A stretch of 64,000 bases of DNA from Octopus sinensis. Taxonomy: Eukaryota. The DNA lies in NCBI RefSeq assembly GCF_006345805.1, contig NC_042999.1, positions 132,742,001-132,806,000 on the forward strand, given 5' to 3'. The stretch's first letter is position 1. The number at the start of each line of letters is the position of its first letter. The translations under genes and the position numbers were made by a program. This document shows, piece after piece, positions 13,897-16,265 of the stretch. The notes beneath the pieces are model-generated. The model saw nothing but the letters and a program-made list of their open reading frames with translations. It searched no databases and was not told the DNA's origin.

Positions 13897-13924
<28 letters not shown>

Positions 13925-13927
<3 letters not shown>

Positions 13928-14355
13928 AGAAAATTAAAAACGGAAAATACGCACACTTACATGGTTATAGTATAATTTTTAATGTATCGACCGGTTTCGC
14001 AATCGCTATTCATGATACAATGTTTAATTTATATGAAAATATATTTTTTCTTAAGAAGAAAATGGGTCCATGTTGTTTATAATGAGATTCACTCGTGAAT
14101 CTCATTATAAACAACATGGACCCATTTTCACTCGTGAATCTCATTATAAACAACATGGACCCATTTTCTTCTTAAGAAAAAATATATTTTCATATAAATT
14201 AAACATTGTATCATGAATAGTGATTGCGAAACCGGTCGATACATTAAAAATTATACTATAACCATGTAAGTGTGCGTATTTTCCGTTTTTATTTTTCTTA
14301 TATACATTACAATCCACTACGTCGGGACAACCGAAATTCCTCTTTTCTGTTACTA
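13925..14355. mobile_element. Foldback Penelope-like element (~170-bp near-perfect arms) with hammerhead motif in each arm
   Basis: 13925-14092 is the reverse complement of 14134-14303; extra 39-bp duplication at apex; 3' extension to ~14355. Confidence 0.8.
14207..14243 (+). ncRNA. Minimal type I hammerhead-like motif, A3-U8 variant (mirror copy 13983-14019 on minus)
   Basis: TGTATC ATGAATA GTGATTGC GAAA CCGG TC GATACA: 6-bp helix I, short helix II, palindromic ACCGGT helix III, GUC site. Confidence 0.6.
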
Positions 14356-14371
14356 CTACTATATATATATA

Positions 14372-14438
14372 CCAGGTGGTGCTATTAAGTTAGACATGGC
14401 CTGGGCCAATAATGGCCGAAACCTATCAAAGTATCAAA

Positions 14439-14440: not shown

Positions 14441-14499
<59 letters not shown>

Positions 14500-14500
<1 letters not shown>

Positions 14501-14826
14501 TAGTGAATTGAAGAAATAGAGTTGAACGAAGATTGAACAGAAATCGTTTTATTGCATTCTACACGTGTTTCGAAAGCCACAATTTACCAAATTCCGATTG
14601 AATAAGGAGACCATATTGTGTCTTTCTGTTCAATCTTCGTTCAACTCCATTTCTTCAATTCACTAATAATATTAAAATTCAATTATCCGCACCAACGCAC
14701 GGTTGCAACACCATATGGTTGTACCTCCAACCGTGCTGTCTTCTGCTGTGATTTTTGCTACCAAGGTATCGGTTAAACTTTTGATTAATCTGCAACAAGA
14801 TTATTCATCTTTCTATTTCACCAAAT
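14500..14826. mobile_element. Foldback Penelope-like element with partial hammerhead
   Basis: Arms 14501-14543 / 14623-14665; minus-strand GAAACACGTGTA; 3' part recurs at 62880-63025. Confidence 0.65.
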
Positions 14827-15664: not shown

Positions 15665-16225
15665 AATTTCAACAATTGAGGGTAAAATTAATTAATTAAT
15701 TAATCAATTTCACCAAGTATTCAGTATGCAAAGGGACCATTTAAGGCAAATTCAAATTATTACATTATATAAAAGGGCTTAGTAAAATAAATTACTTTGC
15801 CGCATACTGAACTCGTTAGAAATAGCAGCTAAAAAAAACTATTTCTAACACTTAAAGAAAACCTCTCTCATATAGTGCTTGCTCAATTCAACCCAAGAAA
15901 GTATGAGGGTAGAGACATTAAAAAATCAAATGCAAAGGTTATTTGAGTACGTACGTTTCAAGATTAGCCAAATTCGACCCTTCTCTCATCAGAAGGGCAT
16001 TCTGAGCTGATGAGAGAAGGGTCGAATTGGCTAATCTTGAAACGTACGTACTCAAATACCTTTGCATTTGATTTTTTAATGTCTCTACCCTCATACTTTC
16101 TTGGGTTGAATTGAGCAAGCACTATATGAGAGAGGTTTTCTTTAAGTGTTAGAAATAGTTTTTTTTAGCTGCTATTTCTAACGAGTTCAGTATGCGGCAA
16201 AGTAATTTATTTTACTAAGCCCTTT

Positions 16226-16233
<8 letters not shown>
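15665..16233. mobile_element. Foldback Penelope-like element, ~228-bp arms, in (TA)n
   Basis: 15764-15992 is the reverse complement of 16007-16233; 14-bp spacer; ~100-bp one-sided extension. Confidence 0.85.
16003..16054 (+). ncRNA. Type I hammerhead ribozyme, intact core
   Basis: TGAG CTGATGA GAGA..TCTT GAAA CGTACG TA CTCA; helix III ACGTACGT palindrome; predicted cleavage after A16050. Confidence 0.75.

Positions 16234-16265
<32 letters not shown>

Follow-up and report, generated by a model that had tools for sequence, protein, structure and literature searches.

A3-U8 hammerhead motifs at the end of a PLE family and covariation of core positions 3 and 8 among related families

Our analyses place a minimal type I hammerhead motif at the end of a Penelope-like element (PLE), a retrotransposon, and comparisons at the sequence level establish its PLE context, the presence of A3-U8 throughout its family, and the covariation of both core positions 3 and 8 and helix I. 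We consider it likely that the motif represents a family of PLE pseudo-LTR hammerheads whose A3-U8 master copies keep the 3-8 tertiary pair, so that dimers would be able to cut themselves slowly after C17. The comparisons also tip slightly in favour of a broader scenario, in which the active-site 3-8 pair of one PLE clade underwent at least three to four exchanges, passing through all four Watson-Crick pairs as well as U·G and reaching A3-U8 twice.

In the window, i.e. the whole stretch of 64,000 nucleotides that was analysed, the core ATGAATA flanked by the helix I strands TGTATC and GATACA could be read in both arms of an inverted repeat (Table 1), exactly as the initial annotation had described. 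The core order helix I, N3UGAN N8 A, helix II, GAAA, helix III, UH and helix I' is present, and the literal C3 and G8 of the CUGANGA consensus are absent from both motifs. The arms (13919-14099 and 14127-14307) are 181 nt long and 97% identical, with five differing positions, and since they are copies of one element they do not constitute independent observations. Helix II of the minus arm, GCGATTGC, is typical of the family, and that of the plus arm carries a private G-U at 14221. The 3' half of the motif, GAAACCGGTCGATACA, had 159 exact matches in the 2.7 Gb of genome searched vs one for the reversed control, so that the motif represents more than a chance resemblance.

Table 1. Window coordinates of the PLE insertion, its hammerhead motifs and its flanks
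Feature	Position	Strand	Remarks
Plus-arm motif, 5' parts	helix I TGTATC 14207-14212; core ATGAATA 14213-14219	+	A3 = 14213, U8 = 14218
Plus-arm motif, remaining parts	GTGATTGC 14220-14227; GAAA 14228-14231; CCGG 14232-14235; UC 14236-14237; GATACA 14238-14243	+	
Minimal type I hammerhead motif	14207..14243	+	core A3-U4-G5-A6-A7-U8-A9, 2-bp helix II, palindromic helix III ACCGGU
Predicted cut, plus-arm motif	between 14237 and 14238	+	from hammerhead numbering
Second motif copy, inverted arm	13983..14019 (reads 14019 to 13983)	-	A3 = 14013, U8 = 14008
Predicted cut, minus-arm motif	between 13989 and 13988	-	from hammerhead numbering
PLE 3' end (pseudo-LTR and ~50-nt tail), 5'-truncated	14127..14359	+	97-98% identity to L007 and L003 3' ends
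Inverted 5'-truncated copy of the same PLE end, without tail	13919..14099	-	
39-nt tandem duplication at inversion junction	14088..14165 (14088-14126, 14127-14165)	+	
(TA)n microsatellite, left flank	13900..13927		
(TA)n, right flank	14360..14371		

Longer copies of the family encode an RT-like ORF with a YLDD motif, a C-x4-C-x2-C linker (seen in L002, L035 and L066) and a GIY-YIG domain (PF01541, E 4.3e-06), the hammerhead motif being located ~265-310 nt downstream of the ORF end. Pfam gave no match for RT fragments of the window's own family, despite the presence of YLDD; RVT_1 was found on a relative, P0001 (76% identical), and on the sister element L243. Both L007 and L003 are RT/GIY-YIG-encoding copies, and the 3' ends of 92 loci cluster at L007 position 1728 (42 loci) and at 1675-1678 (33 loci), ~50 nt apart. 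A (TA)n tract is found at the end of most family copies, and the left-flank tract is likely to be the insertion target of the window element. An inverted truncated copy and a tail at one end are both present, and in conjunction with the PLE proteins these features identify the insertion as a PLE end, assigned by sequence features to the 5'-truncated, inverted end of a Neptune/Nematis-type element. The Neptune and Nematis PLEs described by Craig et al. (2021, PMC8557442) are alike in their RT, CX2-5CxxC linker and C-terminal GIY-YIG, as well as in inverted 5'-truncated copies, one-end tails and microsatellite targeting, a likeness in domain layout, linker and insertion features. Unlike non-LTR retrozymes, which are non-coding ~300-bp tandem units with one hammerhead each, the family constitutes the end of a coding element. 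A search for motif-less PLE copies that started from protein brought up nothing but decayed members of the family and fragments whose shortness or age precluded a judgement.

The window insertion is 98-99% identical to the family majority, from which copies differ on average by 4.2%. This copy is probably dead, given that it has no ORF, that its motifs lie on opposite strands and that read-through would bury the motif in a hairpin, the whole insertion folding into a single one (-270 kcal/mol) in which every base of the motif is paired. A splice-donor-like GTAAGT (window ~14265-14270), ~27 nt downstream of the hammerhead, occurs in 43 of 48 copies of the window's subfamily. At L067 3040-3200 the 5' ORF follows directly on this end, which might point to an intron in the 5' UTR.

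Whether A3 and U8 are private changes of this copy was assessed by means of a core-blind pattern, which produced 98 matches, three of them unrelated. Among the 95 family copies left, A3 was found in 94 (the exception carrying G3), U8 in all 95 and C3-G8 in none; likewise, in loci picked by the 3' half alone, 28 of 30 keep the core, with A3 in 27 and U8 in 28. ATGAATA is consequently the family state, and the reading as private mutations, which the initial annotation had proposed to check against the family consensus, can be discarded. In contigs from four public runs bearing four organism labels, which drop rare variants and include only sequence at least 80% alike, no variant of 2% or more was found at position 3 or 8, and one helix I pair varied on both sides, from G-C to A-U.

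All combinations of bases at positions 3 and 8 were then counted genome-wide as exact matches to the architecture N3-UGAN-N8-A, G10.1-C11.1, GAAAC-SS-GUH, with reversed-pattern controls, a design that leaves out hammerheads with other helix III forms and that fixes the remaining core bases and the H at the cleavage site, so that their invariance is built in. U3-A8 was by far the largest class (6994 matches; control 10), followed by A3-U8 (887 + 181 = 1068; controls 4 and 7), C3-G8 (102; control 4) and G3-C8 (82; control 5), the consensus pair thus accounting for 102 of 8246 Watson-Crick matches. The other 12 combinations, covered by four overlapping searches, amounted together to at most 658 matches: 147 for R3R8 (control 25), 58 for Y3Y8 (control 19), 272 for K3K8 (control 30) and 181 for M3M8 (control 29). 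Except for U3·G8, the non-Watson-Crick matches listed (at most 100 per class) were mostly scattered single mutants of abundant families, and among the 100 listed per mismatch class there was no abundant purine-purine, pyrimidine-pyrimidine or A·C family. Two young U3·G8 PLE subfamilies, nested among U3-A8 families and with copies mostly 91-98% alike, made up ~60 of the 100 K3K8 matches listed out of 272. Since the U3·G8 wobble is a family state there, the constraint appears to be on pairing and not strictly on Watson-Crick geometry. Loci L234-L239 belong to these subfamilies, many of them being long copies with inverted ends. As to the C3-G8 class, 88 of the 100 matches listed correspond to a single ~360-bp tandem repeat with no PLE protein match.

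A second PLE lineage provides the closest view of a change of pair. In a core-blind survey of this lineage, the 100 matches listed of 195 comprised 84 A-U and 11 G-C, the remainder being two A-C, two A-G, one U-C and no G-U. Sister subfamilies with G3-C8 and A3-U8, represented by seven copies each with the same helix II length, showed group-level differences at seven of 799 columns, positions 3 and 8 among them; from -186 up to where the compared sequence stops on its 3' side, these two positions are the sole differences. As the groups were defined by their bases at 3 and 8, what is informative is how few other differences, and how few intermediates, there are. Once position 3 has changed, a second change at 8 among five other substitutions would be expected by chance with a frequency of ~0.6%.

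In a DNA tree of the second lineage (46 of 60 loci kept, columns 3 and 8 masked), the G3-C8 families were basal under midpoint rooting (SH 100 and 99). In endonuclease trees four groups were supported: two are U-A, one is the second lineage with both G-C and A-U, and one is the window lineage, which is A-U throughout. A single A3-U8 clade was rejected (p-AU 0.0003, 26-row endonuclease tree). Two origins of A3-U8 are likely from these alignments, a conclusion which depends on how the second lineage is rooted. If an older, long-branched C3-G8 family serves as outgroup, the number of double changes required is about four. For the later protein trees, whose two rootings differ, 26 and 25 rows were picked by hand out of 55 plus additions; the first, quick protein tree omitted L165p1500, whose endonuclease is part of an adjacent element.

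Helix I, which was not part of the search patterns, behaves as a helix. In 20 hand-picked family representatives both sides had changed at all six pairs, with 87.5% of cells paired, a score equalled in none of 500 shuffles, and pairing over the whole structure reached 90.5% vs 24-38% in slid controls, figures to be read bearing in mind that relatedness inflates covariation scores. In one common subfamily, an A·C in the distal part of helix I is left uncompensated. A3-U8 was kept throughout lineage-A subfamilies that share just ~64-67% identity in their endonucleases, while N7 and helix I changed. By comparison of sequences, then, the 3-8 pair covaries among related PLE families, which bears out the compensatory reading of the initial annotation, and this covariation is likely to reflect selection for an active fold, the evidence for selection consisting of about four inferred double changes, in which copies do not count as independent events.

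The same annotation had considered helices I to III intact, which somewhat overstates the case. Helix II comprises just 2 bp, with a predicted energy of +0.7 kcal/mol for the isolated hairpin, which rises to +2.8 with the private G-U of the plus arm, and helix III has no loop and requires a partner. The palindrome ACCGGU would form a duplex of -8.3 kcal/mol, so helix III can pair between two copies. The monomer fold is no more stable than shuffled sequences (z -0.06 and -0.12), a result that is uninformative. The annotation's expectation that CUGANGA searches would overlook the motif proved right, as both CUGANGA descriptors and Rfam miss it: no hammerhead family was present among the 22 Rfam matches at E <= 10 in 13900-14400. 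These matches, with scores below gathering, were dismissed as hairpin and microsatellite artefacts.

The literature regards PLE hammerheads as ribozymes that act slowly and as dimers (PMC4209133; PMC6765202), and they have also been suggested to be mere parasites of the elements (PMC4209133 and PMC8557442). In the mechanism proposed in PMC6155905, G12 would act as general base and the 2'-OH of residue 8 as general acid, so that in principle another base could stand at 8, provided that it is still paired. We propose that in full or tandem element transcripts two same-sense motifs would pair through ACCGGU, forming helix III, that the A3-U8 pair would hold ribose 8, with its 2'-OH, beside the unchanged G12, and that cleavage after C17 would release or trim element RNA. 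Reportedly, Przybilski and Hammann found in 2007 that all Watson-Crick 3-8 pairs are active, to varying degrees. Cleavage by A3-U8 motifs would probably take place slowly and as a dimer.

Different scenarios might nevertheless account for the conservation of the pair. The fold could be selected while A3-U8 cleaves little or not at all alone, the motif being an attenuated ribozyme, one that depends on host or element proteins, or a structural or dimerisation signal. Such a situation, which we regard as unlikely, would agree with the poor cleavage shown in vitro by metazoan PLE hammerheads, dimers included (PMC4209133), and with the full pairwise mutagenesis of a type III hammerhead, in which strong rescue was obtained for the G-C swap alone and all other double changes in the region left little activity (PMC9901934). 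It would also fit the 2-bp helix II, the lack of a stable monomer fold and the missing footprint of 5' ends at the predicted cut: none of the 92 loci, chosen by sequence upstream of the cut, starts there, and a targeted search found no excess, one of six non-C17 copies starting at the cut and five being C17U variants. Against it, the C3-G8 pair is present in the tertiary-stabilised active structure and absent from minimal ground-state crystals (PMC3884650), so that retention of a 3-8 pair points to selection on the active conformation, and its repeated natural compensation provides indirect evidence of selection on catalysis. Moreover, every family found carries H (C, A or U) at the site of cleavage, though this is imposed by the pattern.

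A more radical possibility, and to us an improbable one, is that the hammerhead is vestigial, a master copy having carried A3 and U8 along as two neutral changes whose pairing is coincidental. The steps from G3-C8 to A3-U8 and from C3-G8 to U3-A8 each amount to two AT-increasing transitions in an AT-rich genome, the independent events are few, the two young U3·G8 subfamilies transposed without a Watson-Crick 3-8 pair, and Naiad PLEs proliferated without canonical hammerheads (PMC8557442). Neutral drift of the two positions is, however, difficult to reconcile with the absence of abundant purine-purine, pyrimidine-pyrimidine or A·C families from the matches listed (100 per class), with two of the seven sister-subfamily differences falling on precisely the paired positions, with the persistence of A3-U8 across lineage-A subfamilies despite changes at N7 and in helix I, and with the covariation of helix I itself. 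Slow dimer cleavage by A3-U8 masters remains the reading we prefer, although the mutagenesis result, the missing footprint of 5' ends, the uncompensated A·C of helix I, the U3·G8 subfamilies and the Naiad PLEs weigh against it. Two further explanations were dropped: that purine 3 avoids a 3-17 misfold with A17, since U3 occurs together with A17 in the families with the most copies, and a partner-specific dimer code, since a single strand contains both position 3 and position 8.

The motif resembles the minimal type I hammerheads of metazoan PLEs (Cervera and De la Pena 2014, PMC4209133) in its pseudo-LTR location, type I order and G10.1-C11.1, in a short palindromic helix III with presumed dimer activity, and in copies on opposite strands 100-700 bp apart. 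It differs in its purine 3 (A3-U8 here, G3-C8 in the related lineage), not seen in the Fig. S3 rows examined from that report, in having no extra nucleotide between 9 and 10.1, and in a helix II of 2 bp vs 4-8. The same authors describe natural U3-A8, with ~1,300 matches in Schistosoma, as well as a single U3·G8 example (Fig. S3). The natural U3-A8 variants of Perreault et al. (2011, PMC3088659) are alike in their compensatory 3-8 change, but those in the available portion swap within pyrimidine-3/purine-8 alone, whereas here purine and pyrimidine are exchanged. Nothing further on the core was present in the available text of bioRxiv 10.64898/2026.07.22.740005 and PMC7229834. The advance is hence incremental, natural U3-A8 being already published, and no natural A3-U8 or G3-C8 was found in the literature searched. 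Lunse, Weinberg and Breaker are said to have described PLE-associated small hammerhead variants with a diminished stem III and dimer cleavage, a collection that may contain them.

The low share of C3-G8 in the genome-wide count indicates that descriptors should use a paired N3-N8; if the picture is correct, CUGANGA-based censuses would miss ~99% of the hammerheads of such architecture in such genomes. Repeated swaps, if real, would constitute tree-resolved evidence of selection for the catalytic conformation and not of passive carriage, and the near-isogenic natural G3-C8 and A3-U8 motifs are well suited to direct ribozyme comparison.

Other hammerhead-bearing sequences were encountered in the course of these analyses. 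The dominant U3-A8 family includes a 748-codon open RT and GIY-YIG frame (L243 2473-4716), which suggests recent activity. Loci L079-L108, L113, L121, L128 and L138 contain ~355-360-bp tandem repeats with type I hammerheads in C3-G8 and U3-A8 versions; the repeats of L079-L108 have no PLE protein match and resemble non-LTR retrozymes. Within the window, a short inverted repeat of a dispersed family (14495-14670) shows GAAA, a CACGTG palindrome and UA on its minus strand, with no contiguous core. A candidate C3-G8 hammerhead with a 4-bp helix I and the palindrome CGTACG is found at 16007 (plus strand), inside an inverted repeat (15761-16236, 179-nt arms, 99%) that has relatives in L091, L100, L172, L189 and L190.
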